DNA of 64,000 nucleotides from a virus: IMG/VR virus record IMGVR_UViG_3300045988_151198; one strand, written 5' to 3'. Positions 7,955 through 53,912 of this stretch are shown here, one piece after another. A program made the translations under genes and the position numbers. The first letter of the stretch is position 1; each line of letters starts with the position of its first letter. The notes under the pieces were generated by a model. That model had not been told where the DNA came from, did not search any database, and worked only from the letters and a program-made list of their open reading frames with translations.

Positions 7955-8425
7955 TTGCGACGCCAAACAAAATCCATCGAAGCGCATAAGCAAGATGGTA
8001 CATACAATTCTACGAAGCATGGAGTGGACGTTCCATTGGCGGAAGGACCGCTGAGGAAAATCAATTGGGACAAGATGTCCTCGGAAGACATTTATACTAC
8101 GATTGCTGATGTTATCGCGCAGAAGGGACTTGACCATGCTGAATACTCTCTGGCTTTGGAACTCTTAGTTTATGCGGTGAATAGGATGCTTAAACTCCGC
8201 AGGGATCTGAAATCCCAAGGCGGAGAGACATATATTACCCCGACAGGTATTCGGAAAAACAATCCTACAGCGAAACTTGTTATGGAAGCAGAGAAGCAAG
8301 TTGATACGCTCCTGCAAAGGTTTGGGCTTACTCCGGATTCTCGTAGTCGAGTAGCTAGGAAGAAGGGAGAACTTAATCTAGGGAGTGAAGATTCTTTCGG
8401 ATCTCCGGAAGGTTTCTTCAATTAA
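7955..8425 (+). CDS. terS: phage terminase small subunit, P27 family (TTG start)
   Basis: Family hallmark motif ...QRFGLTPDSRSRV... plus the upstream pattern (G..K.NP); RBS AAGGAG precedes the TTG. Confidence 0.7.
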   Translation: MRRQTKSIEAHKQDGTYNSTKHGVDVPLAEGPLRKINWDKMSSEDIYTTIADVIAQKGLDHAEYSLALELLVYAVNRMLKLRRDLKSQGGETYITPTGIRKNNPTAKLVMEAEKQVDTLLQRFGLTPDSRSRVARKKGELNLGSEDSFGSPEGFFN

Positions 8426-8658: not shown

Positions 8659-8735
8659 GCGACCGTAACTCAATTGGCAAGAGTAGCCGACTTTTAATTG
8701 GCAAGTTATGGGTTCAAGCCCCATCGGTCGCACCA
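8659..8735 (+). tRNA. tRNA-Lys (anticodon TTT)
   Basis: Hand-folded cloverleaf: acceptor GCGACCG/CGGTCGC, D-stem ACTC/GAGT, anticodon stem GCCGA/TTGGC with loop CTTTTAA, T-arm ATGGG-TTCAAGC-CCCAT, discriminator A, encoded CCA. Confidence 0.7.
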
Positions 8736-8761
8736 TAAATCTGTAAAAAGGAGATTCATAG

Positions 8762-9028
8762 ATGGACACGACCACTGATTTCTTTGAAAGAATGTTTTCT
8801 TGTGAAGGTTGGGATCAGCTTGACACTTTCGACTTTGTGTTTTATGATTGCACTTTGAACAGGGATATTGGAGATTTTAAGGAAGGAGACAAGATTGACG
8901 CTATTACTGTCCTTTTTAGTGTCAGCAAGATCGAATTTGCGACGTTCATTGAGAACAAGGATGGTATGGATGAAGAAAAAATCATTTATTCCGCAACGCT
9001 TGTGCCCTTTATGGTCGAACGACCTTAA
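8762..9028 (+). CDS. hypothetical protein (88 aa) embedded between the two tRNA clusters
   Basis: ORF with RBS AAAGGAGATTCATAG-ATG. Confidence 0.45.
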   Translation: MDTTTDFFERMFSCEGWDQLDTFDFVFYDCTLNRDIGDFKEGDKIDAITVLFSVSKIEFATFIENKDGMDEEKIIYSATLVPFMVERP

Positions 9029-9046
9029 AAACTATTAAAAAAGTTC

Positions 9047-9075
9047 TTGACATTCTGATTTAAGTTTAGTATAAG
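9047..9075 (+). promoter_or_regulatory. promoter TTGACA-N17-TATAAG driving the second tRNA cluster
   Basis: TTGACA at 9047..9052 and TATAAG at 9070..9075. Confidence 0.6.
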
Positions 9076-9113
9076 GTTTCCATCAATTCATTCATACGTT
9101 TGCTCCTCGAATC

Positions 9114-9147
9114 GGGAGACGCAATTTCCTCCTTTATTGCGTCTCCC
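9114..9147 (+). other. perfect 12-bp stem-loop (GGGAGACGCAAT / ATTGCGTCTCCC) in the leader of the second tRNA cluster; no immediate U-run, so read as an RNA structural or processing element rather than a terminator
   Basis: Exact inverted repeat with a 10-nt loop, just downstream of the 9047 promoter. Confidence 0.45.
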
Positions 9148-9262
9148 ACAACAAAAATTTTTAACAGAAGAATCGGCTTATAATCGGGAAGTTATATAGA
9201 ATTTTATAGTACCGTGGGGCACACGGGAACTGAGAGTAATCTCTACGCTTGTCGACATCAGG

Positions 9263-9339
9263 TAATGATGGTTGAAGCAAGAATCCCATACATTTATACA
9301 TGGGGAGTGCCAAAGGTTCGAGTCCTATCGACTCTACCA
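9263..9339 (+). tRNA. tRNA-like element (T-arm GGTTCGAGTCC, 3' ACCA); the 5' acceptor strand could not be paired by hand
   Basis: T-loop TTCGAGT, discriminator A and CCA at 9337..9339; no complementary 5' acceptor was found within 70 to 110 nt upstream. Confidence 0.3.
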
Positions 9340-9343
9340 TCAT

Positions 9344-9422
9344 GCTCTCGTGGTGCAACTGGCAGACACATCGGTTTTAAGCACCGTACAAGTGATGGGT
9401 TCGACTCCCTCCGAGAGTACCA
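9344..9422 (+). tRNA. tRNA with anticodon TAA (would read Leu UUA/UUG), but it lacks the long variable arm expected of a Leu tRNA, and the T-stem has mismatches
   Basis: Acceptor GCTCTCG/CGAGAGT (first pair G-U), anticodon stem CGGT/ACCG with loop TTTAAGC, T-loop TTCGACT, CCA at 9420..9422. Confidence 0.5.
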
Positions 9423-9432
9423 AAAAAAATAT

Positions 9433-9508
9433 TGTGGGATAGTTCAGTTTGGTAGAACACTTGACGTTAATCAAGGTGTTGGCGGTTCAATCCCGTCTCC
9501 CACAGCCA
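9433..9508 (+). tRNA. tRNA with good acceptor, D and T arms, but the anticodon loop folds as 6 nt (CGTTAA) or 8 nt (ACGTTAAT); anticodon identity unresolved (GTT or TTA/TAA)
   Basis: Acceptor TGTGGGA/TCCCACA, D-stem GTTC/GAAC, T-arm GGCGG-TTCAATC-CCGTC, anticodon stem CTTGA/TCAAG, CCA at 9506..9508. Confidence 0.5.
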
Positions 9509-9523
9509 GAAGAATTAAAAACG

Positions 9524-9613
9524 GGACAGGTGCCAGAGTCAGGCTTATTGGGGCGGTCTTGAAAACCGTTGGCGCAGGAGCGTCCGTGGGTTCGAATCCT
9601 ACCTTGTCCGCCA
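9524..9613 (+). tRNA. tRNA-Ser (anticodon TGA), type II with a long variable arm
   Basis: Acceptor GGACAGG/CTTGTCC, anticodon stem GCGGT/ACCGT with loop CTTGAAA, variable arm GGCGC-AGGA-GCGTC, T-arm GTGGG-TTCGAAT-CCTAC, CCA at 9611..9613. Confidence 0.7.
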
Positions 9614-10164
9614 AATTTATCGATATTTATACGGGATACGAAGTAGAGCAGACAAGTGCGTTGAAAAACTGACGGATATGTCGAAAGACATAGACTAATA
9701 GTAGCTGCGACGCAATAGACCTTCTATGACGATAGATAGAACTAGCATATCAAACTCGTGGTTACGATGCTTCGTTACTTGCAAGACCCTATTAAATATC
9801 GATAATATTTCGATGGATTGAGTTGATCTACGTATCTCCCTGTATGGATCGAGAACGCAAGATCCTCTTCATCGATAAAAGCCAAACGTGATCTTGAAAG
9901 GAACGATTCGACCTCCTTGCGTAGCCTATCGAGGTCCGTTTGGCCCCACAAATCTCCGGGTGTAGTTTAAGAGCTTAGTCAGGATCTAGATGAGAAAACC
10001 GCATACTAGTAGGCACTCATTGAAAGAAGTGATATTGATTCTGACGGGCCACAGTTAAAACCTCTGCGCGAAGTAAACAGCTTCGAAGAAAATGCGAATG
10101 CTTGATCAGCATTTTAGGTGCAATTCCCGCCACTCGGACACAATTAAAAAAAAGGAATGGTGTA

Positions 10165-10383
10165 ATGGAAAAGTTTAAATCCTCAGCAATTTATTTTATT
10201 GATTCTATGTTTGCGCTCTGGGTTATTTGTAGTGCGCTCAGATGGGACTGGATAAATCTATTAGATCCGAACGAAGTTATGTATCTTATCTCGTTTATTG
10301 GCATAAGCGCGTTTATGACGGCTAGAAACGCCAATAAGGACAAAAAAAAGACTCCGCACCGAAATCTCTGTAAATCTAAATGA
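10165..10383 (+). CDS. small two-TM membrane protein (hypothetical)
   Basis: ATG at 10165 with RBS AAAAAGGAATGGTGTA; two hydrophobic segments; the track ORF 10102..10383 has no RBS at its first Met. Confidence 0.4.
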   Translation: MEKFKSSAIYFIDSMFALWVICSALRWDWINLLDPNEVMYLISFIGISAFMTARNANKDKKKTPHRNLCKSK

Positions 10384-10528: not shown

Positions 10529-10840
10529 TCACTTATATACGTTAATGAACCATGTAACAAATACCGTGAATGCTGCGGATAGAATACCTAATGCACCTTT
10601 CCAGATCGAAATTTGTCTATCATGTCGTTTAAGAGTTTCTTTCATTTCCGTGATGTTGTCAATGTCGATTTTGTCGAGCTTTTTACGCATTTCTTCAATC
10701 AACATGCTTTGATTTCCAGTCCGTTCATCAATACGATGGGCAAGTGTAAGAATATGCCGTATCGTTTCCTCATTCGTCATATTGTGGCAAGCTAGGCACC
10801 CGAGATTAGGTGTTGCCGAGTGCTGCGTATTTTCCGCCAT
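10529..10840 (-). CDS. lysis-cassette protein with a C-terminal TM anchor (spanin- or holin-like; hypothetical)
   Basis: 103 aa; C-terminal hydrophobic stretch ALGILSAAFTVFVTWFI; immediately downstream of the holin-like and endolysin genes. Confidence 0.4.
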   Translation of the reverse strand: MAENTQHSATPNLGCLACHNMTNEETIRHILTLAHRIDERTGNQSMLIEEMRKKLDKIDIDNITEMKETLKRHDRQISIWKGALGILSAAFTVFVTWFINVYK

Positions 10841-10847
10841 GATCTTC

Positions 10848-11423
10848 CTACTTTTTTGAGGTGCTTCCTATTGGGGAGGAATGATACAAAAGTCTATTCT
10901 GCGAATTTGACGAATTGGAAGACCCGAAGTAATATTCCATTACTTGTTTCGAGCTAGAATAGATATTCGATACCACACCGCCAATCAGAGCGACAAGGAA
11001 CTCGGGCACTTTTATATCTGAGAGAGTTCCATTCATATATAAGGCCATAGCATAAAATATCGCGGCAGAAACGGCAAGGTTGCCAATCACGTTTATAATG
11101 GCAAGAAGTTTCGGCGTCGAAGAATCATCGGCATCTATTTCGCGTTGACGGGCATCTTTTCTATCATCGGCAGAAATACGAACAAGGTCAACTTCCAACT
11201 CAGCTAATTTTGCTTTAAAGTCGGAATCGACCTTTTTTAATTCTGCCAGTTGCTCGAAAGAAGCCTTCTGCACACATTGGGCTACTTGCTTTTCGTCGGC
11301 GTCCGAGGAAAGCCCAAAAGCCGCTGCTAATGACGATACTGCAACTCCAGCCAGAGGGCCACCAAGAGCGGTAGCGATTGTTGGAGCAACGGTTCCAACG
11401 ACACTCTTCCAATCAAAATCCAT
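10848..11423 (-). CDS. holin-like membrane protein (resembles the 3-TM, Gly-zipper holin type)
   Basis: Gly/Ala-rich N-terminal TM (GGPLAGVAVSSLAAAFGL), a central coiled region and C-terminal TMs; adjacent to the endolysin. Confidence 0.45.
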   Translation of the reverse strand: MDFDWKSVVGTVAPTIATALGGPLAGVAVSSLAAAFGLSSDADEKQVAQCVQKASFEQLAELKKVDSDFKAKLAELEVDLVRISADDRKDARQREIDADDSSTPKLLAIINVIGNLAVSAAIFYAMALYMNGTLSDIKVPEFLVALIGGVVSNIYSSSKQVMEYYFGSSNSSNSQNRLLYHSSPIGSTSKK

Positions 11424-11466: not shown

Positions 11467-11856
11467 TTAAAACTCAATCTGATAATGCGGCTGGTCAACG
11501 ATAGTCTTCCAATTTCCGCCCCACGTGAGATTCACGCCAAGTTCTTCCGCGCATTCCATCATGGCCTTATTAATCATCAACCACTTTTCCTTGTCGGGTT
11601 CGACCTGTACAGACCCGTTGTAATAAGGATACAGGTCGACAGCGTGCCCATACCCGTCCGATTGTTTCAGATGATAGGACTTCAAGGTCTTTGAGAACCC
11701 ATCCTTCTTCAACTGAACCTGCCTTTCATACGTGCGGAGCCCTTCAACTACCGTGAAATCGACTTCGCTTTTCTGCAAAGCTGCTTCAACAACAGCGCGA
11801 AGCTTCGGATGCACACCTTCAAGATTATTCAATGAACGCTTAGAAAATTTACGCAT
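11467..11856 (-). CDS. endolysin, peptidase M15 family (L-alanyl-D-glutamate / D-Ala-D-Ala zinc peptidase)
   Basis: Motifs SYHLKQSDGYGHAVDL (S-x-H...H-x-x-D zinc ligands) and WGGNW, typical of M15 phage endolysins. Confidence 0.75.
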   Translation of the reverse strand: MRKFSKRSLNNLEGVHPKLRAVVEAALQKSEVDFTVVEGLRTYERQVQLKKDGFSKTLKSYHLKQSDGYGHAVDLYPYYNGSVQVEPDKEKWLMINKAMMECAEELGVNLTWGGNWKTIVDQPHYQIEF

Positions 11857-15213: not shown

Positions 15214-15851
15214 GATTCTTCCTCCATTTTTTGTTCGACCGCAATTCTTGCATGTTTAAGGCGACATTGCACGCATTTATATCTTAATTTGCCCACCTCT
15301 GTACAACCCTCACCGATTATTTCACATGGCAGCGAATCCAGTTCACCAGCTTTTGCAAGCCAAATAGCTGCCCTAGCCTCAAATTCGGCTACATCTTGGC
15401 TAAATCCCGATAAAGTATACCGTTTTGGATTCATAGGATAATTTTGACCAACGCATTGTGCATAATAACAGAAGCTATAAATACACTCGGTCTTTTTATC
15501 CCTTCCACACCTAAAACACACGTCTTTTCGGTTTTCCAACCACTGTTTTTCGCTATCTTTAAGTTGAAATCTATAGCTTTCTTTGTTGTATAGGTCTTTA
15601 ATCGGAAATTTAGCGTCCCAATCAGCTTCGGCGGCTTCCTTGGTTTTGAAAAGATCCGACTTTTTATTACAGAAAACGCTATTGCAAGTCACATGCCACA
15701 TTTCATATGGGCCTACAAAAGAGTCAATTAGTACCTTCTTGGCAGTAGCGTCATTAGCACAGTGCGGACATTTTCTTGTGTTCATATGCACCTCATTTTC
15801 ACTACACACTCGTAAGCCTGTACTTTTCATACAGGACGAAGGCTTCCCCAC
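15210..15851 (-). CDS. tandem zinc-ribbon protein with two Lar-like (restriction alleviation) repeats
   Basis: CPHCAN...CNSVFCNKK...EAAEADWDAKF and CFRCGRD...ARAAIWLAKA resemble the Lar-family pattern CPFCG...C..C...eAi.aWN. Confidence 0.4.
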   Translation of the reverse strand: MGKPSSCMKSTGLRVCSENEVHMNTRKCPHCANDATAKKVLIDSFVGPYEMWHVTCNSVFCNKKSDLFKTKEAAEADWDAKFPIKDLYNKESYRFQLKDSEKQWLENRKDVCFRCGRDKKTECIYSFCYYAQCVGQNYPMNPKRYTLSGFSQDVAEFEARAAIWLAKAGELDSLPCEIIGEGCTEVGKLRYKCVQCRLKHARIAVEQKMEEES

Positions 15852-16924: not shown

Positions 16925-16994
16925 TTTATACTGTGTAGGTTTTTTGATTATCTGATGTGTGTAGCAGAAGAGTCGAAGGAAGTCAAGGATAGGG

Positions 16995-17425
16995 GGCGTA
17001 GATCACACCCGGATCACACGGATCTGAAATAACTAATTGAAATATATTGTAAAGATTGAAAATTGGTCTTTAAAATTGAACCTGAAAATCGTTCATATAA
17101 CTCACTAGAATATATTGTGATTTAAAAAATCGGGATCACACGGATCACACTCGATTCAATAGTTTCGATACTTTAGGCCCTTGTGATCCGGATGATCCTG
17201 ATCCGGGTACCTCCCAAGTCTTTTTATATACGATCACGGGTAGGGGTATAGAGGGTATGTTGCATATTTGAGACTGGTCATTTTTCTTCTTATGGACTTA
17301 TCTTCTATCTATCGGGATCACAAGGATCACATAAATATAAATATATAAAATAAAAGAATAAAAGTGTGATCCCGATTGTGATCCCGATCCAATTTGTGAT
17401 CCCGATATCGGGATCACACTCCTGT
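16995..17425. repeat. iteron array: at least 13 copies of the GGATCACA(C) / TGTGATCC(CGAT) core in both orientations, including three tandem TGTGATCCCGAT units plus an inverted copy; every unit contains GATC; candidate origin of replication
   Basis: Direct reading at 17001..17025, 17132..17155, 17182..17206, 17311..17332 and 17365..17422; ORF-free intergenic region. Confidence 0.65.
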
Positions 17426-17510
17426 TAAAATCCCATTTTTTGAAGCTCCTCTCCCAATCTGTGAGAAAGCTAAAAACTTAAAGTGTAACTCTAAGAATTT
17501 CTTTGTAATT

Positions 17511-17660
17511 GAAATAATTTGACTTTTTATTTACGGTTTAATTCGGAAAGTTTCTATTTAAAAATCTTTTAAAAGCCGAAATTTCTTATCGACCGATTTA
17601 ATTGACTTTTTTATTTTCCGTTTCTTTTAGTTTTAATTCGAAAAGTTTTCCGGTTTAAAA
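17511..17660. repeat. AT-rich region with two imperfect direct repeats of about 45 bp (TTGACTTTTTATTTACGGTTTAATTCGGAAAGTTTC...)
   Basis: Direct reading; adjacent to the iterons. Confidence 0.5.
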
Positions 17661-17690
17661 GAAACCAAAACTCTTTTAAATGGATCAGAA

Positions 17691-17763
17691 ACGGACGAAA
17701 AGAAGATCCGAATCTCTTTTGCCAGTCTGTTGGGCTCCGAGATTCGGATCTTCTTTTCGTCCG
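17691..17763. terminator. 25-bp perfect hairpin (ACGGACGAAAAGAAGATCCGAATCTC / GAGATTCGGATCTTCTTTTCGTCCG) 24 nt downstream of the primase-helicase stop codon
   Basis: Exact inverted repeat with a 22-nt loop. Confidence 0.5.
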
Positions 17764-17786
17764 AGTTTAGGTTTTGCGGGTGGGGA

Positions 17787-20405
17787 TTAATCTGTGCTCA
17801 ATTCGTCAAACTCGTTTTTTGGGATATTCAGATATTCACAGAACAAACCAATGCAATCGTCCAATTTCGGAAAGGCGTGTACTTTCATTCTTTCATTCCT
17901 GTTTGCAATTTGAAGAACCCTGAAAGTGTGATCTCCTAATCCAAAAATACGTTTTGTTTCGATACTGAATTTTTTTAAAGATACAATATCGTATGAGGAT
18001 GCTCTACTTCTAACCATTTCTTGTTTAAACTTTTCATGCGCCTTTCCAAGTGACAAATAGCTAGGCCAAGATGGGCAGTCTGAGTCCTCAAAAAGCTTTA
18101 CTGACTTTTCATCTTCGATTTCTTCCCTCGGGAATGCTCCCTCGGAAAGAATATCATACCACCATTTCTGCACACTACTCAAAGAAAGGAGTTTCTGTTC
18201 CATGAGAGCCTTCGTCTGGGGAGCCTCTCGGATATTCACTCCGCTAAAGTCATAATGTTTCAGATAGACGTAAAGGGCCTCGTCACCGCCATTCTCAAAT
18301 TCCTCATTAAGGTCTTTGAAGTATCCTTGAGTATCCTGTTTATGCTTCGAGGACACGTCGAGAACAAAGAATCTGCGGGCGTCCTTACCTGCGGGGATAA
18401 CCCAGTCCTCGTTAGAAGACATGATGAACCGGGAGCAGGAATGCACAGAGTATGATTCGAAGCCTTTCCTTTCGATCACCTGAGTACGTTCCGTGATCTG
18501 TGATTTAAGAATGCTTTCGTCCTGTTTGCTTCCGGCCCAGACAGCTTCGTCGAGATAGATAAGGACTTTCCCTTCGGTGGCTCCGTTGAAGTTCGAGAAG
18601 TAGTGTTGCCTATTCGCTACAGACAAGCCGTGCTTGCCCAACATGCTCATGAACGGAGATACGAAAGAGCCTTTACCAGTACCTTCCTCACCACGAAGCA
18701 CAACGGCTACGCCGGGCTTATCCTCCGGCTTTTGAATCATGTGCGCAAGCCAAGCCCACATATACCGTTGGTGATCTTCATTACCATCACAGATTACTTC
18801 ATTGACGTGGCTCCTAAACAACTTGCAGCGTTCAGTGGCCTCGGCAATTCCCATCTCCGAGTTTGCATATTTAAACCCGCGCCAGAGATTGTAGTACCCC
18901 TTGGGAGCCCCCTGCGGAGCAAATTCCACCCCACGATATTGACGGCGGTTCTTGCTTTCCATCCATGCTTTGAAGAGGGGTTTTTGCTTCACGTTCCCTT
19001 TTGCATCAAGAAACTCGAATGCGGGAAGGTTTGCGGAGAACTCTTCGGCGGCCCTAGGAGTAAGGAATTTGGATTCCCCGTCAGGATCTTCGTAAATGAT
19101 TGCCGATTTCCCTCCGATAAAAGTAAAAGCGAAAAGACCATTCATTTTCTTGATCAGAGGATGCACGTAGTCCTGATCGGAATCTTCTTCCTTTTCGGCG
19201 TTTTTAACAATATCGGATGATGAATCCTCCGAATTTCCGAAAGGTGATTCTCCGAAAGGATTATCCTCTACATTTGTCTGGGATTCCTTGTTCTCGGTTT
19301 TAGGTTCTTCCGTTCCATAGTCTTTCATAATCATCTCAAACATGCGTTCGGCATAGATTGGGCAGCTTCCACAGACCCTCGAACGCTCTTTTCCCAGAAT
19401 CGTAATCATCGCTCCGCAACCGAAATCGCACGGGGATTTCTCGTCAGTATCCCACACGCTTTCAAGATGGTGCGTTCTGTCCATAGCCGAAGTATAACCT
19501 TGAGACTCTTCGAAATTTTCGAGAAAGTCGACTACAAGAGGATGGTTAATGGCTTCCGACTTTGTGAATCCCGCAGATCTGAGAGCGGGAACGATGGCGG
19601 AGAAGCACATCTGATTGAAGGAATAGTCTCCAGTTTTCTTTGTAAGTCCAAGAATCGCCTTTAGGCAAGGAACGATTTCCTTGTCCTTAATATTAAGCGG
19701 GGCTTGCTTCCTTTCCGAGCGGGCTTTGATGGCTCCTACGACATTCGCTTCACATCTACGGAAAAGATCGCTCAGATAATCAATTCTAGCGGGTTTCTTT
19801 GCTTGTTCGTCAGGCTGAGGCGATAGGGCTTTGCTTTGAAAATACTCAATAGTATTATTGATAAGCTCATCCGCGCTAATACGGATTTTGTATCTGCCAT
19901 TGGAACGAAGCCTATTCGCAATTCGGAACATCTTTCCACGTTTCATAGCGAACATGGAATAGTCGAGAGTCTTATAGCCTTCCTCGCTAGGGAAAAGTTC
20001 AAGGCACACTTCTTTGTAAATCCAAGGAAGAACGCGATGTCCATTTTCCGCGCCAAAAGCCTCCGCAGGAACGACGATATGAAAACCCTTCTGCCCCGAA
20101 TAATAGATTCTAAGAGACTCCGAATCCAATCCCAAAAGAACCAATTTATTCAAAGCATTTACTGTATCGATACGGCTCTCCTCAGCATCTTTTGAGTCGA
20201 AATCGAGAGTCAAATCCCCATATCGTACTACAGCCAAATTAAGGATATCCTTATTTTCATCCTTATAATTGGGCTCCGTTTCAAAAGACATTGACGTAGA
20301 GAACATAGCGATATTCGGCACTTTGTCTATTTTACAAATCTTCCAAGCGCTTTCCCTTTCTTCAACTTTCCAATATACAAAGCGTTGCATATATGCCACC
20401 CTCAT
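17787..20405 (-). CDS. bifunctional DNA primase-helicase: AEP/Prim-Pol-like N-terminus, D5/P4-type SF3 helicase C-terminus
   Basis: AEP motif YYSGQKGFHIVVP near the N-terminus; Walker A VVLRGEEGTGKGSF in the C-terminal half; 872 aa; first start uncertain (possibly the Met 15 nt downstream). Confidence 0.8.
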   Translation of the reverse strand: MRVAYMQRFVYWKVEERESAWKICKIDKVPNIAMFSTSMSFETEPNYKDENKDILNLAVVRYGDLTLDFDSKDAEESRIDTVNALNKLVLLGLDSESLRIYYSGQKGFHIVVPAEAFGAENGHRVLPWIYKEVCLELFPSEEGYKTLDYSMFAMKRGKMFRIANRLRSNGRYKIRISADELINNTIEYFQSKALSPQPDEQAKKPARIDYLSDLFRRCEANVVGAIKARSERKQAPLNIKDKEIVPCLKAILGLTKKTGDYSFNQMCFSAIVPALRSAGFTKSEAINHPLVVDFLENFEESQGYTSAMDRTHHLESVWDTDEKSPCDFGCGAMITILGKERSRVCGSCPIYAERMFEMIMKDYGTEEPKTENKESQTNVEDNPFGESPFGNSEDSSSDIVKNAEKEEDSDQDYVHPLIKKMNGLFAFTFIGGKSAIIYEDPDGESKFLTPRAAEEFSANLPAFEFLDAKGNVKQKPLFKAWMESKNRRQYRGVEFAPQGAPKGYYNLWRGFKYANSEMGIAEATERCKLFRSHVNEVICDGNEDHQRYMWAWLAHMIQKPEDKPGVAVVLRGEEGTGKGSFVSPFMSMLGKHGLSVANRQHYFSNFNGATEGKVLIYLDEAVWAGSKQDESILKSQITERTQVIERKGFESYSVHSCSRFIMSSNEDWVIPAGKDARRFFVLDVSSKHKQDTQGYFKDLNEEFENGGDEALYVYLKHYDFSGVNIREAPQTKALMEQKLLSLSSVQKWWYDILSEGAFPREEIEDEKSVKLFEDSDCPSWPSYLSLGKAHEKFKQEMVRSRASSYDIVSLKKFSIETKRIFGLGDHTFRVLQIANRNERMKVHAFPKLDDCIGLFCEYLNIPKNEFDELSTD

Positions 20406-20416
20406 CTCCTTATTTT

Positions 20417-21643
20417 CTATTTATTTCTAGGCTTTACGATATGCACTTTTTCTTTTGCCCGAGTAATCGACGTATACATCCAGTGCTTTCTGTTTTGAAT
20501 ATCGTTTTTTCTCATTTCATCATCAAATATAATAACGTAAGGCCATTCGCTTCCTTGAGATGCGTGTGCGGTAATTGCATAGGCAAAGTCGACGACGATA
20601 GACCCCCACTTCGGCTTATTGTTTTCCGGAAGCTCAAAAGCCGCCCGAAGAAGGGAATCATTCACTTTTATAGTGTGATGCGTGTCTCCATCTTCCTTAT
20701 AGTCAAAATATAAAGTAATTTTATTTTGACTTTCGTGAGATCCTACAACACTTCCGATATCTCCATTGACCAATATCAGCTTATTATATTTTTTTGAAAC
20801 AGATTCCCGGATATTCTGCTTGACGATTATTTTATCGCCAACAACCGGAAATACTTGATTTTTTTCTTCCCGAAGCCAACGGTTGAGCTTCATCCGAGTA
20901 GAGTTCTGGCCCGTAATGACCTGATCCGCGATAGCATACTCTTCTTTAGGCAATCCATAGGAGAATCCTATTCCTTCGTTTTTCCAATATTCCCATCCTT
21001 TGAAGCCTCCCATACGAATTTCAGTGGCTAGGCGAGTAATCGGAGATTCCAATGCGGCACGATGCACCTCCGACAGGAACGCATCGAAATCCGAGGGATT
21101 GGAAGGAAGGACTTGAGCGGATTTTACAGGTTGCAGTTGGAAAGGGTCCCCAACAAGAATGAGTTTCTTGCAGATCTGTTTCAGGGCCTTAAACTCTTTA
21201 TACCCCAACATGGAGGATTCGTCAATGACAACAACCCTCGAAAAGAGTTCCGGGCACGGAGAATATGTGAACTCTATGCCTAAATTATTTTTTGCCTCCA
21301 GCAAATACGTGTATCTTACAATGTCTTGGTCTTCACCGGACTCATCAGCTATTTTTCTTGCTTCCTCCAGTTCTTCATCGCTGATTTCTCTAACGGAATA
21401 GAGCGCAGAATGCACCGTCTTTATGAGCGTACCCGCTGGCATTTTTCGAGAAAGTACTTGACAGGCTTTCCCCGTAGGAGCGAGCATGATCAATTCATCT
21501 TTATAGTATTCAGCCAAGGCATAAAGCAGCGTAGTCTTGCCCGTACCCGCACAGCCTCCTAGCATAAATGGCTCCCAATCTTTTTTATACCTAATGATTT
21601 TTTCAATTGCCTCATTTTGATGAGGAGTTAGGATGACTCCCAT
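20417..21643 (-). CDS. SF1 DNA helicase, Dda/RecD-like
   Basis: Walker A GGCAGTGKTT, motif II VVIDESSM, C-terminal helicase domain; RBS AAAGGAGGTTTTATAC. Confidence 0.75.
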   Translation of the reverse strand: MGVILTPHQNEAIEKIIRYKKDWEPFMLGGCAGTGKTTLLYALAEYYKDELIMLAPTGKACQVLSRKMPAGTLIKTVHSALYSVREISDEELEEARKIADESGEDQDIVRYTYLLEAKNNLGIEFTYSPCPELFSRVVVIDESSMLGYKEFKALKQICKKLILVGDPFQLQPVKSAQVLPSNPSDFDAFLSEVHRAALESPITRLATEIRMGGFKGWEYWKNEGIGFSYGLPKEEYAIADQVITGQNSTRMKLNRWLREEKNQVFPVVGDKIIVKQNIRESVSKKYNKLILVNGDIGSVVGSHESQNKITLYFDYKEDGDTHHTIKVNDSLLRAAFELPENNKPKWGSIVVDFAYAITAHASQGSEWPYVIIFDDEMRKNDIQNRKHWMYTSITRAKEKVHIVKPRNK

Positions 21644-29097: not shown

Positions 29098-29161
29098 AAA
29101 GTTCTTGACACGAAAAGCGTAATTTAATAGGTTGTAAAAAACATCAACAAGGAGAGAAAAT

Positions 29162-32606: not shown

Positions 32607-32681
32607 CCGAAAAAATATGTTGACATAAATAGTTTTAAAATTTAATATTGATTATTCACACACATAAAGGAGAAGATTAAA

Positions 32682-33422: not shown

Positions 33423-33510
33423 CCTAAAGAATATGTTGACATTCGCTTCCGATTGATGAATACTCCATTTGTCGGAAGCAAACATCTTTAGAAAGAAGGA
33501 GTGTAAGAGA

Positions 33511-34693
33511 ATGATTGAGGTAAAAGGATCAGTAAGTACAGCTAAGGTTTTCACAGACTATGTGGATCCGACCGCGTTATCTCAGATTATTGAATTATGT
33601 AATCAGGAGTTCACCGAAGGAAGTAAAATCCGTATTATGCCTGATGTACATGCTGGTGCTGGATGCGTTATTGGAACGACGATGACCATTGAAAATAAGA
33701 AAATCGTTCCTAATCTTGTCGGTGTTGATATTGGCTGTGGGTTGACATCGGCAAGATATGGCGGTTACGAATTGGGCTTCCTGCAAGAATATGAAAAAGA
33801 AGAAGGTGTGTGGGTAAATGATTTTTTAAAAGAATTTGATAGGTTGATTCGGGCAAATGTTCCTATGGGTACGAATGTTTGCGAAAAGCTAATGTACCAT
33901 CCATTTAGGACACGAATAAAAGAATTGATTTGCGCTAAAAATGTAAATATTGAAAGGGGGTATCACAGTATTGGAACCCTTGGTGGTGGAAATCATTTTA
34001 TTGAAGTTGGATGTGATATTTTCTCTGAAAAGAAAGGGCACATAGGAGAATTGCGTAGAGATTTTTATATCACGGTTCATTCCGGATCTCGTGGTATCGG
34101 AAAAGAAGTAGCTACTTATTATCAAAAAATTGCGGAAGAACAATGCAAAAATGTGCCAAAGCACTTAGCATATTTATCTGGGAACGCATTTGAAGACTAT
34201 ATTCACGATATGCAGATTATGCAGGAATACGCTTCTATTAATCGTGATTGTATAATCGAAAAAAATAGCTATGAATTGCGCTTTAATCGCTCCCGCTCCG
34301 GATAGCTACGAAGAAACAATTCATAATTATGTCGAGATTGGAGAAAAGATTATTCTTCGCAAAGGTGCAATCTCCGCGAAAAAAGATGAAAAAGTCATGA
34401 TTCCATTAAACATGCGGGATGGTATCATAATCGGAAAAGGTAAGGGCCTTGAGGATTGGAATGAATCCGCGCCTCATGGTGCCGGGCGCGTACTTAGTCG
34501 AGGACAAGCTAAACGGCAATTGTCCGTAGATATTTTTAAGGATCAAATGGAAGGAATCTATTCAACCTGCATAAACGAATCGACGTTGGATGAAAGCCCT
34601 TCCGCATACAAGAATTCTGATGAGATTTGTAATAATCTCGATTCCGTAGAAATTGTCGGAAGGACTAAGCCTATCTATAATATTAAAGCATAA
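33511..34693 (+). pseudogene. rtcB: RtcB-family RNA ligase, disrupted by a frameshift: N-terminal part 33511..34305, C-terminal part continues in the +1 frame from about 34256 to 34693
   Basis: N-terminal motifs MPDVHAGAGCVIG, VGVDIGCGL, GGGNHFIE, ASINRDCI; the C-terminal part carries HNYVE...RKGA...SAPHGAGR; the two frames overlap at 34256..34305. Confidence 0.65.
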
Positions 34694-47849: not shown

Positions 47850-47870
47850 TCTATAACAACCAAATAGAAA

Positions 47871-47894
47871 GAGAGGGAGAATCGTCTCCCTCTC
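47871..47894. other. 10-bp stem-loop GAGAGGGAGA-ATCG-TCTCCCTCTC between the major tail and chaperone genes (possible attenuator; no clean U-run)
   Basis: Direct reading. Confidence 0.3.
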
Positions 47895-47921: not shown

Positions 47922-48293
47922 ATGGCTATTCTTACTATTGAAAAATTTGCGGAGCTGCGTAATAGTCTTACTGTTGTGAAAGACAAGTTTTATATCCCCG
48001 TATGGGACGCGGAAGTTTACATGCGTAGACTGAGCGCCGGGGAAGCAATGAAAATTTATAGCCGCGCCGAGAAAGTTCAAGACGAGGATAAAAAGGTCGA
48101 AGAGTATAACTTTGCGATGTACCGCATGGTTATTGCTTGCCTTGTCGATGAGAACGGCAACCAGATGCTTACTGAAAATGACATCAATTGGCTTTTGAGT
48201 CAGGATGTTCAGGTTGTTACTGCCTTGGTTGAAGCCGCATCAAAGATGAATACTATCAATGAAAAGGCTCAGGAAGAGGCAGAAAAAAACTAA
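47922..48293 (+). CDS. tail assembly chaperone (gpG-like)
   Basis: 123 aa, acidic; followed by an overlapping -1 frame ORF. Confidence 0.6.
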   Translation: MAILTIEKFAELRNSLTVVKDKFYIPVWDAEVYMRRLSAGEAMKIYSRAEKVQDEDKKVEEYNFAMYRMVIACLVDENGNQMLTENDINWLLSQDVQVVTALVEAASKMNTINEKAQEEAEKN

Positions 48294-48532
48294 CTACTGG
48301 CTGGCTTTGGATGTTTGCGTATTCTCTTGCGCGTGATCTTCATATGACGGTAAACCAGCTTTTAGAAAACATGGACGTAGAAGAGTTCATGGGATGGGTT
48401 GCCTACCATAAGATTAAAAACGAAGAACAAGAGAATGAAGAAGGGGGCCAATCTCCTAGAAAAAGAGAGATGACCCCCGAAGAACAAGAAAAGGCGATGT
48501 TCGCTCTTTATGGCGGAAAAGTTATTGAATAA
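47922..48532 (+). CDS. tail assembly chaperone G-T fusion, produced by a -1 programmed frameshift
   Basis: ORF 48311..48532 is in the -1 frame relative to G and is open from the slip site. Confidence 0.55.
48284..48290 (+). promoter_or_regulatory. -1 programmed ribosomal frameshift slippery heptamer A_AAA_AAC
   Basis: Zero-frame codons GAA AAA AAC TAA; the -1 frame stays open through 48532. Confidence 0.6.
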
Positions 48533-48541
48533 AAAAGTCGC

Positions 48542-48808
48542 CTACTTCTTCGCAGCGTTTTCTTTATCCAGCCGTTTGCGCGCCTCCCATTCTTTACGCA
48601 TCGAAACAATCTGATTGATGCCCGGAATAATTGCACTCTTGAGTAGCACATGGCAACTCAATGCCATATACAAACCGATTATGCCCAACTTTGTACCATA
48701 AGGTTTTCCATTCACGTCCGCAAGAATACCAAAGGCAAAAATCAAGGCACCGATGATTTCAACAGAAACAAAGACTCTAAGCAAAACGTAAAATTTTTTC
48801 ATTTTCAA
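48542..48808 (-). CDS. small two-TM membrane protein encoded antisense within the tail module (moron)
   Basis: 88 aa; strong RBS AAGGGAGATTGAAA-ATG on the minus strand; hydrophobic helices; opposite in orientation to all flanking structural genes. Confidence 0.5.
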   Translation of the reverse strand: MKMKKFYVLLRVFVSVEIIGALIFAFGILADVNGKPYGTKLGIIGLYMALSCHVLLKSAIIPGINQIVSMRKEWEARKRLDKENAAKK

Positions 48809-48845
48809 TCTCCCTTAAAAAGCCCGTAATGGATTGGAGGTGTAC

Positions 48846-49421
48846 ATGGCTTTTAATGTACAACAACTCCCGCTCAAACTTCTCTCTGAAATTTCATTTC
48901 AAATAGAGACGGAGGGTGCGAAAGTCCTTACGGGCTTTTCTAATGCGCTCCGTCTTGAGATGATAAAAAATGCTAAAAGTATCCCCCTTTCCAAGAACCC
49001 TTGGTACGTAACGCCCAATGAAAATTTTAGAGAAACGCCATTTGTCCGTCCATCAAAAAGAATACCTAAAAAAGCTAAACTTGTTGACGCTGGAGCTTGG
49101 TATGCACATTTTCTTGAATACGGTACGGAGCCCCATGTTGTCAAGGGAAAAAGAAGTCCTAAAAAATGGATGCGATATGAAGACAAACTTGGCGTACCTC
49201 CCGGTATAGTATTCAGAGATCCAGCTACGAAAGAAATTATCAGATTTACGGAAAGAAGTAAAGTAGACGGAAAAGTCTACGTTTTTTCAAAAAAAGAAGA
49301 GCATGGCATTCCCGGTAAATCCACACCAAACCCTTTTCAACCTGCGGGATATGTGCGTAAAACTGCGGATTCAGCCGAAAAAGTGCTTGAAAAATATTTG
49401 TCCACGGAAGAGGGATCTTAA
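48846..49421 (+). CDS. HK97 gp10-family protein (tail or neck component)
   Basis: HFLEYGTEPH resembles the HEFGT signature of the HK97 gp10 family. Confidence 0.45.
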   Translation: MAFNVQQLPLKLLSEISFQIETEGAKVLTGFSNALRLEMIKNAKSIPLSKNPWYVTPNENFRETPFVRPSKRIPKKAKLVDAGAWYAHFLEYGTEPHVVKGKRSPKKWMRYEDKLGVPPGIVFRDPATKEIIRFTERSKVDGKVYVFSKKEEHGIPGKSTPNPFQPAGYVRKTADSAEKVLEKYLSTEEGS

Positions 49422-52400: not shown

Positions 52401-53521
52401 GATTACATTCCGTTGCTGAGGCGCAAGAGTTCCTGAGCAACAAGCTCAAAGAAGGATTGTTCGCCAAGCAAGCGGAAAAAGAAAAAAAAGCTGTCGATGA
52501 TCTTCGTGAAAAGTTGATGGACTTTGAAAGGGCTTATTCCGAAATCGTTTCTGGCGATAAGGGTGAGGCCGCACTTAAATCCTATGAAAAGCAATCTAAG
52601 CAATGGAAAGACACCGCTGAGAAGCTCTATAGGTCTATATCCAATTCCGCGTTCTCTTCCACAGAAGAAAGAATCGCCGCTGAACAAGAATATGCCGATA
52701 CCGTTGCCCGTATTGATGAATGGATGGCGGAACAGAGAATCCGTACGTCTGGTGGTGTTTTAGATAATCTGAAACTTGGTATCAAAGACTACTATGATCA
52801 GCACAAGAACTATGCTCTTGGATTGGGAGAAGTAGTAACCTCTACTACGGATAGCATGGCTGCCGCCTTATCTGATTTTGTGGTAGGAGGTATGCGAGAC
52901 TTTAAGTCCTTCGGAGAGGCATTTGATAGCTTGGTCAATGACATGATCAGAAGCCTGTCAAAATTGCTTGCGCAACAGCTTATGTCCGGCATTCTCCAAT
53001 CTGCGCTTGGCCTCTTCACCGGAGGTATTGGCGGTGGAGGCGGTGCCGATAATGCGGTTTCATTCTCGTCTTGGTTCGGCGGTATTAATAGAAAAGCCAA
53101 TGGTGGCGTGATGACTGGAATTTCTGGTCATAGCAATTCGATAGTAACTTCACCGACTCTTTTCTCTTACGGAAAAGAAATCAGCCAGTATGCCAATGGT
53201 GCTGGATTGATGGGAGAAGCTGGACCCGAAGCTATTATGCCTTTGACGAGAACAAGCTCAGGTAAACTCGGCGTCATTTCTAAACGAGAAAATGAGTCGA
53301 GCCGACCCACATCTTCTTCATCTTCCGAGGTGTTTGTAAATGTTTATAATTCTACTGGTCAAAAGGCACAAACCAAACAAACTCAGAATGCAAATGGGTC
53401 AAAAAGCATAGATGTTATAATTGGTGATGTCGCCGCACAGCAGATGCTTACTCCCGGCACCAAAGCCAATTATGCTATCAGAACTCAAACCGGGGCTACT
53501 CCCCCGACGATTAAGCGGTGA
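49421..53521 (+). CDS. tape measure protein
   Basis: 1366 aa, alpha-helical and Ala/Gln-rich, between the chaperones and the distal tail genes. Confidence 0.85.
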   Translation: MATKRLTRLVIPVELDDSKTASTLTNLKEVITQTSQQISRSMEKALPVADITNASINIIRSIGSIQASAKTAAAGIKSETDKIGNALQGAFGVDATKASSMMQKFLEMRGVERAVTQLKRMQREYGLTSAEAIEFAKSINASDEVLRRFADTQERTKQGGRGVSGLLTPYSLTSGVQAAAGAVGVSFGMYGMVELTKSVFNATTALDSLQLSFKSIYGESAVAEQSLGFVRKVSDELGLSFIDTAQAAKALFASAKGTVLENDAQMIFKSFSQMGVALKLTGEQMNSVFLAISQMISKGKVSAEELRLQLSERMPGAVNLFAKAIGVTTKQLDDMLQKGEVGLEHLRTFAEEVGKTYAKGAEEASHGLQAELNRLATAWFDLKSAMMDSEGAAAFIRVLTEITKFIGQNIDSIMNFVKWIGIVYTTLKVTTAFGVAVDALKNLRTAFTLTGVAAAETSGIMKAAQAVIAKFALAFNANPIALTVTALVAVGTAAYALSNQMSDSEKFISGYAKSFDEIASKSEKAAASQNNLSNSNKRLQEQYLSGEYVKRQMDFIQALQELPNVFSSTKVVSFFDSILGPLSDTDSEALFTLRSQAVKLAKETRDAIDKALNEETDPKARDEMIKNTLDRFKIMFRTIKDGMKEAGASEEVIKQWDNFGGAILNAKDTADAAKAALEALTGEANKSGNSITKFAEAYEAIRKGTKTTEFGKQLAGQEDFETQIRGLLQMSEAQEQLENKTRNLLAAYTEQQNANTLTEEKMRELESAFDSMSSQSGQLDNAFRLVAEAAVSSGADASTLDSIIEKLGETFHLSSQDIDEFRTKLNSALSVAALQSAEQKLAAIEGKLATVGSKTSRAALTTLSSMKELQKGQEKQILEAIESGDFTNLLNAQGNKIAADVAKVYKEIAEKSEALVAAEDANRKAKRDANKKPKKIPEFDIEGFDVRVQKLFGTETNFAKIVEAEIEKLNASLATHKLDIKKVAEIYKDELPDGLHSVAEAQEFLSNKLKEGLFAKQAEKEKKAVDDLREKLMDFERAYSEIVSGDKGEAALKSYEKQSKQWKDTAEKLYRSISNSAFSSTEERIAAEQEYADTVARIDEWMAEQRIRTSGGVLDNLKLGIKDYYDQHKNYALGLGEVVTSTTDSMAAALSDFVVGGMRDFKSFGEAFDSLVNDMIRSLSKLLAQQLMSGILQSALGLFTGGIGGGGGADNAVSFSSWFGGINRKANGGVMTGISGHSNSIVTSPTLFSYGKEISQYANGAGLMGEAGPEAIMPLTRTSSGKLGVISKRENESSRPTSSSSSEVFVNVYNSTGQKAQTKQTQNANGSKSIDVIIGDVAAQQMLTPGTKANYAIRTQTGATPPTIKR

Positions 53522-53525
53522 TTAT

Positions 53526-53912
53526 ATGAGTATTACTTGGCCCGCAGATCTTCCTCAAGTACCCTTCGCAGACGGAGGGTACTCCGAATCAATGCCGTCC
53601 AACCTTCTTGTGTCTACTATGGATACAGGTCCGAGTAAAGTTAGACGGAGGGGAAGCGCGACTCCCGGAAAAATGAATGTATCTTTTAAAATGACTACGG
53701 CAGCTACTAAAAAATTAGAAACCTTTATCCGAACAATTCTTGGCGGTGGGGCAAAAGCCTTTGAATTTCCTCATCCTAGACTTGACAAAAATGTAAAAGT
53801 ACGTATAATGCCGAAGTCGGACACGGAATTGTATGAAATAAATTTCATCGCTCCCGGCCTATGGAAAGTAGATTTTACCTTTGAGGTTTTTTACGATGCC
53901 CCTCTCGCCTAG
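53526..53912 (+). CDS. minor tail protein (lambda gpM-like)
   Basis: About 128 aa immediately after the tape measure; order M-L-K-I/J as in lambda. Confidence 0.5.
   Translation: MSITWPADLPQVPFADGGYSESMPSNLLVSTMDTGPSKVRRRGSATPGKMNVSFKMTTAATKKLETFIRTILGGGAKAFEFPHPRLDKNVKVRIMPKSDTELYEINFIAPGLWKVDFTFEVFYDAPLA

Follow-up and report, generated by a model that had tools for sequence, protein, structure and literature searches.

The T4 exclusion protein Imm is made early. As described in the T4 record, it alters the membrane so that superinfecting DNA remains in the periplasm. HK97 gp15 is an inner-membrane exclusion protein whose gene lies between the tail chaperone and tape-measure genes (PMC3594210), and it blocks the entry of incoming phage DNA in a manner that depends on the tail and the tape-measure protein (Cumby et al. 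2012, summarised in PMC3594210). As a functional class, superinfection-exclusion membrane proteins such as gp15, Imm and SieA stop the DNA of a superinfecting phage from entering while leaving adsorption intact. A moron, in the sense of Juhala and Hendrix, is extra DNA between genes that are adjacent in related phages, with a promoter and terminator of its own and a deviant base composition, carried by a temperate phage and expressed from the prophage (PMC3594210). Lytic phages make exclusion proteins early, and the llp gene of T5, itself early, sits on the opposite strand where it adjoins the receptor-binding tail gene (oad/pb5) (PMC9586334). Here we consider ORF86, a gene running antisense between the tail chaperone and tape-measure genes in a 64,000-nucleotide (nt) stretch of viral DNA (IMG/VR virus record IMGVR_UViG_3300045988_151198; hereafter the window), which belongs to an uncultured gut siphovirus with lambda-like tail-tip genes. 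Judged by its substitution pattern, ORF86 is a real gene whose peptide is under selection, and the leading, though still tentative, reading by analogy is that it acts as a pre-late superinfection-exclusion protein at the cytoplasmic (inner) membrane.

The ORF86 gene and its predicted protein

The original prediction had described an antisense open reading frame (ORF) of 88 amino acids (aa) with a strong ribosome-binding site (RBS) of its own. The orientation and the RBS, GGGAGA, stand, but the length is better given as 86 aa: the listed frame (48542..48808, minus strand) yields 88 aa if started at TTG, and the ATG at 48802 is the better start. This ATG is the likely start because GGGAGA lies 6 nt away, as the minus strand reads across the RBS and start (...TTAAGGGAGATTGAAAATGAAAAAATTT...), and the homologues are 86 aa long in the public gene calls of all relatives. 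The upstream TTG is replaced by ATA in L001-type relatives; a holin-like dual start (TTG/ATG) was dropped for this lack of conservation, as was a plus-strand 59-aa ORF (48650-48829) in which relatives have stops.

The case for a coding gene is carried by the divergence between lineages. A second lineage (P0002/L011) is 77% identical, and the 60 nt differences between it and ORF86 fall on codon positions 1/2/3 as 12/10/38 (chi-square p=5e-6), with a ratio of nonsynonymous to synonymous divergence (dN/dS) of 0.10, or 0.14 when L001 is the partner. At a nucleotide divergence of 23%, the ORF86 frame is the only one of the six that is open across all three lineages, each of the other five having a stop in at least one of them. 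The same comparison bears on the age of the gene: against L011 its dS (1.29) equals that of the tape-measure gene (dS 1.26; dN/dS 0.095), which argues that ORF86 is an old resident, and sliding-window identity shows it diverging in step with the chaperone gene G and the tape-measure gene. Its GC content, 0.414, is close to the means of the window (0.419) and of the late region (0.423 +/- 0.049). These comparisons make ORF86 a long-standing, selected and vertically inherited component of the tail module, and a recent insertion is not supported.

The exact protein of the window is public (NCBI DAQ51434.1 and DAU57434.1, 'MAG TPA: hypothetical protein [Caudoviricetes sp.]') and occurs on 175 contigs, while its cluster at 90% identity comprises 41 members, or protein variants, on several hundred contigs. 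On hundreds of gut-metagenome contigs the gene is intact and constant in position and orientation, and every one of the sampled relatives (77-100% identity) has it at the same place. No relative without ORF86 was found: searches with G, with the protein of the adjoining 191-aa gene and by megablast yielded either nothing or relatives at 85% identity and above, while those with the tape-measure and capsid proteins returned only isolates at 35% identity or less, the junctions of which are unrelated. More distant relatives of G, the 191-aa gene and ORF86 were not retrieved either. The only disruptions seen are singletons. These rare truncations, P0003 and P0004, lie on short ENA contigs, against hundreds of intact copies. 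By comparison with the window sequence, P0003 reads as a deletion of ~29 nt between AGTTG direct repeats; in P0004, residue 34 is fused to unrelated sequence, and it may be an assembly chimera.

That the product would have two transmembrane (TM) segments is supported by Kyte-Doolittle hydropathy over 19 residues, which peaks at 2.47 (residues ~5-28) and 1.84 (~39-60), and by an AlphaFold2 model from a 15-sequence alignment, in which helices 2-30 and 36-85 form a hairpin (mean pLDDT 88.7). The N-terminus is MKK, the loop ADVNGKPYGTK, and the tail very basic, with 8 K/R in the last 25 residues. Since this charge distribution fits the positive-inside rule, the predicted topology is N-in/C-in, with two TM helices, an outside loop of ~8 residues and a basic cytoplasmic helix. 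Invariant residues are found in helix 1 (R9, S13, E15) and helix 2 (C50, H51, K55, P60), the polar ones among them (R9, S13, E15, C50, H51, K55) being located within the helices, and the tail R69-N82 is nearly all invariant.

By sequence, ORF86 is not a member of the gp15/YebO, Imm or Cor/Llp families or of any holin family. Pfam, PHROGs (E<=0.1), NCBIfam and PADLOC gave no meaningful family match; a word-indexed homology search and an exhaustive phmmer search over 1.84 billion representatives returned its own lineage only; and among 50,697 phage records no tblastn match below E=3 was obtained. One match, the 1103-aa protein P0021 (E=8.6e-5), was discounted as a homologue, the hydrophobic stretch alone being aligned. 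Foldseek of the ORF86 model against viral models returned generic helical hairpins only (E>0.3), with one 'holin' at E=2.7 amid many of them. No paralogue occurs elsewhere in the genome, and an Rfam scan of the region found no family and no antitoxin RNA. Type I toxins are small and hydrophobic, usually under 60 aa, with one TM segment and a dedicated short antisense RNA; a type I toxin-antitoxin system was rejected, given the 86 aa and two helices of ORF86 and a late structural mRNA as the only possible antisense RNA.

Tail-module setting and proposed function

The location first described for ORF86, between the G/GT chaperone and the gp10-like and tape-measure genes with all surrounding genes rightward, is confirmed. 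The gene occupies a 313-nt gap between the T part of the chaperone and the 191-aa gene, and it converges with T, the two stops being 9 nt apart. From 23611 to 63098 of the window the plus strand holds all ORFs judged to be genes, with the exception of ORF86, and in the public gene calls of the homologous ±6-kb region every gene except ORF86 lies on the other strand; it is the sole gene pointing against a rightward arm of ~40 kb. The -1 frame of T reads, from 48290, CTA ACT ACT GGC TGG CTT TGG ATG.... As a general rule the tape-measure gene directly follows G/GT, and by this rule both ORF86 and the 191-aa gene would count as extra. The gp10 similarity of the latter is weak (phrog_5 E=1.4e-5; TIGR01725 E=0.018, below the TIGR01725 cutoff), homologues outside the phage lineage were not found, and the AlphaFold2 model of its protein has a pLDDT of 35. 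Its stop overlaps the tape-measure start (TGATG), which suggests that the two genes are translationally coupled. It forms an unusual second extra gene at the junction from T to the tape-measure gene; T5 likewise has an extra gene, T5.141, at its chaperone/tape-measure junction.

Between the convergent stops of T and ORF86 no terminator was found. The first candidate terminator of a minus-strand transcript is a stable hairpin inside T, ~65 nt after the ORF86 stop, which has no U tail on the plus strand. Farther along, in the stretch separating G from the major tail gene, lies a GC-rich hairpin with the top minus-strand terminator-like score in the 20-kb late region, a candidate end of an ORF86 transcript running antisense through T and G. 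At the same site and in the same orientation, L011 has another stem (AGGGGG..CCCCCT) followed by T6; because the stem differs in sequence while its place and orientation are kept, this is indirect evidence that minus-strand transcription crosses T/G and is halted before the major tail gene. On the far side of ORF86, the 191-aa gene has its RBS and start enclosed by a perfect inverted repeat, in whose inner palindrome (GTACAT-N8-ATGTAC, 48842-48861) L011 carries one compensatory change. The whole element (48818-48939) folds far better than shuffled controls on both strands (z = -3.9, -5.4), and could be a translational or attenuator RNA structure, or else an operator or protein-binding palindrome.

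Superinfection exclusion, one of the functions originally suggested for ORF86, is by analogy the most likely one, though still tentative, and a mechanism can be sketched for it. Being on the opposite strand, with its stop 9 nt from that of T, ORF86 would not be producible from the late transcript. Its mRNA would have to begin on the minus strand at a weak or unconventional start, located within the 191-aa gene or immediately ahead of it, and would probably end at the hairpin in T or at the terminator between the major tail gene and G. Late rightward transcription would then turn ORF86 off, through polymerase collision and a fully complementary late RNA, and as late transcription should silence it, the protein is most likely a pre-late product. 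It would enter the membrane of the infected cell and there keep a second, related phage from building its tape-measure-dependent DNA channel, as the small membrane proteins HK97 gp15 and T4 Imm do, and its linkage to the tape-measure gene would keep the blocker together with its target specificity.

Several observations weigh against exclusion as the function of ORF86. A search for a promoter and terminator of its own had a divided outcome: minus-oriented hairpins are present, but a phage-type promoter is not. The intergenic promoters of this phage belong to a very regular class, cTTGACa-17-TAnnnT, found in both arms and also before the portal and capsid genes, and the 13 intergenic sites from which a position matrix was built score 10-31. 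Upstream of ORF86 on the minus strand no site of this class was found, the best matrix score being 3.0, and a generic sigma-70 scan gave chance-level results. Allowing one mismatch to TTGAC/TA...T, 3 candidates occur within 700 nt where ~1 is expected by chance. The candidate TTGACA-18-TATTCA has hexamers unchanged in L011, with 8/15 spacer positions differing, but it lies inside the 191-aa coding sequence (CDS), lacks the final T of the -10, is statistically indistinguishable from chance and is not callable as a promoter. ORF86 also shows no relationship, by sequence or by family, to gp15, to Imm or to any family of exclusion, defence or holin proteins. The Gram-negative inner membrane at which it would act is inferred from the lambda-like K/J genes of the tail tip, from the endolysin, which is small and globular, and from the tape-measure relatives found in phages of Proteobacteria; on these grounds the host is probably diderm. 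Moreover, its two TM helices, N-in/C-in topology and basic tail are the class II holin pattern too.

That last likeness opens the way to a lysis role, whether as a holin, an antiholin or a lysis-timing protein of class II topology. The topology and charged tail match, and so would the glycine-rich faces (G18, G25, G40, G43) and polar helix residues, which are common in pore formers; even the start in the window, TTG-AAA-ATG, resembles a dual start. However, that start is not conserved (ATA for TTG in the L001-type), and there is no Pfam or PHROG holin match. The lysis cassette, with membrane proteins of its own, lies 37 kb away in the other arm, where the 191-aa and 103-aa genes following the endolysin are better holin candidates, and a holin encoded against the late operon would be shut down at the very time when it is required. 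A lysis function is thus unlikely. Less readily set aside, if still doubtful, is another membrane accessory role, in which the hairpin would not act on incoming DNA but would bind and modulate a membrane protein of the host; transporters, proteases, membrane-bound effectors of abortive infection or defence, and the cell-division or energy machinery are possible partners. The same purifying selection and topology data fit it; the charged R9, E15, H51 and K55 within the helices and the invariant tail are, we infer, typical of small docking proteins; and an orphan family suits a fast-evolving host-interaction function. Yet nothing points to a particular target, and the tape-measure linkage and antisense placement are explained no better than by exclusion. 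The classical moron that was originally proposed, horizontally acquired and expressed from a repressed prophage for exclusion, immunity or conversion by the lysogen, keeps its position, which is that of the HK97 gene 15 moron (PMC3594210), along with its own RBS and opposite orientation, and temperate ancestry is weakly hinted at by a Bro-N antirepressor-like gene and, in the flank, by a short fragment of Peptidase_M78. The rest of the proposal is not supported: the GC content of ORF86 is not deviant, its age is that of the neighbouring tail genes, it has no canonical promoter, and prophage expression is at odds with the lack of an integrase or recombinase in the reconstructed genome, of bacterial flanks and of copies in GTDB genomes. 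A moron of this kind is very improbable.

The antisense arrangement itself could also be what matters, with RNA as the main actor and the peptide secondary. An ORF86 transcript, continuing for ~650 nt antisense through T and G as far as the terminator at 47871-47894, might tune or time chaperone and tape-measure expression, or late sense RNA might silence ORF86. This would agree with the missing terminator between the converging stops, the first hairpin being inside T, and with a strong minus-oriented terminator, kept in function though not in sequence, just before the major tail gene. The peptide, however, is selected (dN/dS 0.10-0.14; 38/60 changes at third positions), no promoter was identified, no Rfam family matches, and the 47871-47894 hairpin could instead be a stabiliser or processing site of plus-strand mRNA; we therefore hold an RNA-centred role to be quite unlikely. 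A combination of both aspects, which we rate just as poorly, is a convergent-transcription timer in the tail operon of a virulent phage, made up of ORF86 and the downstream antisense stretch. Here the minus-strand RNA would encode an early membrane protein and carry ~650 nt antisense over G/GT, including the frameshift site, to end at the conserved minus-only terminator before the major tail gene; early on, the antisense RNA would restrain production of the chaperone and tape-measure proteins, while the membrane protein would later be shut off by late sense transcription, with the inverted repeat at the start of the 191-aa gene belonging to the switch. Finally, the absence of a family and a promoter and the small size would suit a frame that is open by chance, within a spacer of the late transcript that has no coding role, but the third-position bias, the low dN/dS, the conserved Shine-Dalgarno sequence and a frame that stays open where the five others have stops effectively refute it, leaving it a negligible prospect.

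Should exclusion prove to be the function, ORF86 would stand for a new family of injection blockers, an orphan by sequence, in an uncultured siphovirus that is abundant in the human gut, and a probably virulent phage would be keeping a gp15-like gene at the chaperone/tape-measure junction on the opposite strand. This would help in annotating small reverse-strand membrane ORFs in virome assemblies and inform the study of competition between gut phages. As it stands, ORF86 is a well-supported orphan accessory gene of an already familiar kind, a small membrane accessory protein in a siphovirus tail module; its interest would rise if the convergent arrangement proves regulatory or if exclusion is demonstrated in a virulent gut phage.

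Genome and lifestyle of the phage

Together with the contigs L032, L035 and L040, the window closes a genome of ~86-90 kb. There is no nucleotide match to isolate phages, and the capsid and tape-measure relatives reach at most about 35-39% identity. Replication genes in the window include an SF1 helicase, a VapE/DUF5906 primase-helicase-like protein, an SNF2 helicase, an Enc34-type single-stranded DNA-binding protein (SSB) and a family A DNA polymerase, and the window also encodes a DUF2800 nuclease, RtcB, ThyX, dUTPase, dTMP kinase, NrdD/NrdG and an MT-A70 methylase. The tail tip is lambda-like, with a K-like NlpC/P60 protein and a J-like protein of 1747 aa. No integrase, resolvase or other recombinase family was found in the window and the three contigs, and the remaining genome gap has small ORFs only, none large enough for an integrase. 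Among several hundred contigs, none exceeds ~92 kb and none has bacterial flanks, and the ORF86 protein is absent from 185,579 GTDB species-representative genomes. Since it has its own replication genes but no integrase, bacterial flanks or GTDB copies, the phage looks virulent, or at least non-integrating. Candidate hosts are gut anaerobes, probably diderm, that use Shine-Dalgarno sites and sigma-70-type promoters. As a regular promoter of host type occurs on both arms, the sigma-70 RNA polymerase of the host may, without modification, transcribe a large part of the genome. A 12/12 consensus promoter, TTGACA-16-TATAAT (53782-53809, plus strand), lies within the tail gene 53421-53912, a short distance before 53881, where the next minor tail gene starts.

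Other features of the genome stand apart from ORF86. Near the lysis genes there is a convergent 93-aa ORF (10102-10383, plus strand) with a hydrophobic segment and a basic tail. Four tRNA genes (8659-9613, plus strand; Lys-UUU, Leu-UAA, Ser-UGA and one odd two-base anticodon call) lie downstream of the gene for the terminase small subunit (TerS; 7955-8425), which is itself remote both from that for the large subunit (TerL; ~8.7 kb beyond the window on its right) and from the gene for the portal (40684). Upstream of the gene for the 872-aa primase/helicase-like protein lies a gap of 860 nt without coding sequence (16925-17786). It is dense with direct and inverted repeats of the GTGATCC(C/G)/GGGATCACA type, and being so packed with repeats it is probably a replication origin with iterons. 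RtcB is present as two overlapping ORFs (33469-34305 and 34271-34693, plus strand) matching the N- and C-terminal parts of the Pfam RtcB domain, and this split could reflect a frameshift, programmed recoding or a pseudogene. To the left of the window, L032 encodes a T4 endonuclease V-like Pyr_excise protein, a Band_7/SPFH protein, a Peptidase_M78 fragment and a cREC_REC domain protein; the fragment, 68 aa long and ImmA/IrrE-like, is the sole faint hint of a repressor module.

Table 1. Features at the ORF86 junction and elsewhere in the phage genome (window positions, except in the last row)
Feature	Position	Strand	Remarks
ORF86 CDS	48542..48802	-	ATG 48802-48800, TAG stop 48544-48542; small membrane protein, 86 aa
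Shine-Dalgarno GGGAGA	48809..48814	-	6 nt 5' of ORF86 ATG; GGAGA kept in all relatives
Tail assembly chaperone G	47922..48293	+	PF16459 E=1.1e-7; phrog_344 E=3.8e-20
-1 slippery heptamer A_AAA_AAC	48284-48290	+	in G, read from sequence
T extension of GT frameshift product	48290..48532	+	-1 frame; internal ATG at 48311
191-aa gene	48846..49421	+	weak HK97 gp10-like motif
Tape-measure protein, 1366 aa	49421..53521	+	PF20155, PF09718
Candidate terminator hairpin GGGGGUCAUCUCUC..GAGAUUGGCCCCC with U-rich stretch	48443..48478	-	~65 nt after ORF86 stop, inside T
Candidate terminator, GC-rich 10-bp hairpin (47871-47894) with T-rich tail	47861..47894	-	gap between major tail gene and G; tail on minus strand only
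12-bp perfect inverted repeat	48818-48829 / 48928-48939		encloses RBS and start of 191-aa gene
Weak promoter candidate TGGACG-17-TAAAAT	49024..49052	-	matrix score 3.0; -35 degraded in L011
Weak promoter candidate TTGACA-18-TATTCA	49115..49144	-	313 nt upstream of ORF86 ATG
Examples of cTTGACa-17-TAnnnT sites	7426-7398; 4077-4049	-
Examples of cTTGACa-17-TAnnnT sites	29105-29133; 32620-32648; ~40620; ~43205	+
Endolysin	11467-11856	-	phrog_465 E=1.5e-49; small, globular
191-aa protein after endolysin	10848-11423	-	hydrophobic segments
103-aa protein after endolysin	10529-10840	-	hydrophobic segments
L032 accessory genes, in the order given in the text	15300-15800, 17723-18607, 18747-18953, 20006-20440		positions in L032

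Comparison with known exclusion proteins and holins

Class II holins and pinholins (e.g., S21 of phage 21) are proteins of ~70-90 aa with two TM helices, an N-in/C-in topology and a basic C-terminal tail. ORF86 differs from them in lying away from the endolysin, in having no family match and in being antisense to late transcription. The exclusion precedents HK97 gp15, T4 Imm and T5 Llp, for their part, are analogous to ORF86 and not homologous. With gp15 it shares a gene for a small membrane protein at the chaperone/tape-measure junction of a lambda-like siphovirus. In contrast to ORF86, gp15 has 62 aa and one N-terminal hydrophobic helix, is encoded on the strand of the tail genes with its own annotated terminator, belongs to a temperate phage and is expressed from the prophage, and has bacterial YebO homologues, whereas ORF86 is antisense, has two helices and is separated from the tape-measure gene by the 191-aa gene; a BLASTP comparison of the two gave no alignment at E<=100.

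T4 Imm, which comes from a lytic phage, resembles ORF86 in its size (83 aa) and in the pattern of its hydrophobic segments, two long stretches, but its gene lies among early replication genes, its C-terminus is short and non-basic, and the best BLASTP match to ORF86 is at E=0.38 over 9 residues. The parallel with T5 Llp, grouped here with the Cor lipoproteins of T1, phi80 and N15, is one of placement, in that an opposite-strand gene adjoins a tail gene in a strictly lytic siphovirus. Llp, however, is an outer-membrane lipoprotein with a signal peptide and a lipobox that blocks the FhuA receptor, whereas ORF86 has neither lipobox nor signal peptide and is predicted to be a polytopic hairpin; and while llp has annotated divergent promoters and a place at the margin of the late region, ORF86 is embedded within it, between the chaperone and tape-measure genes.

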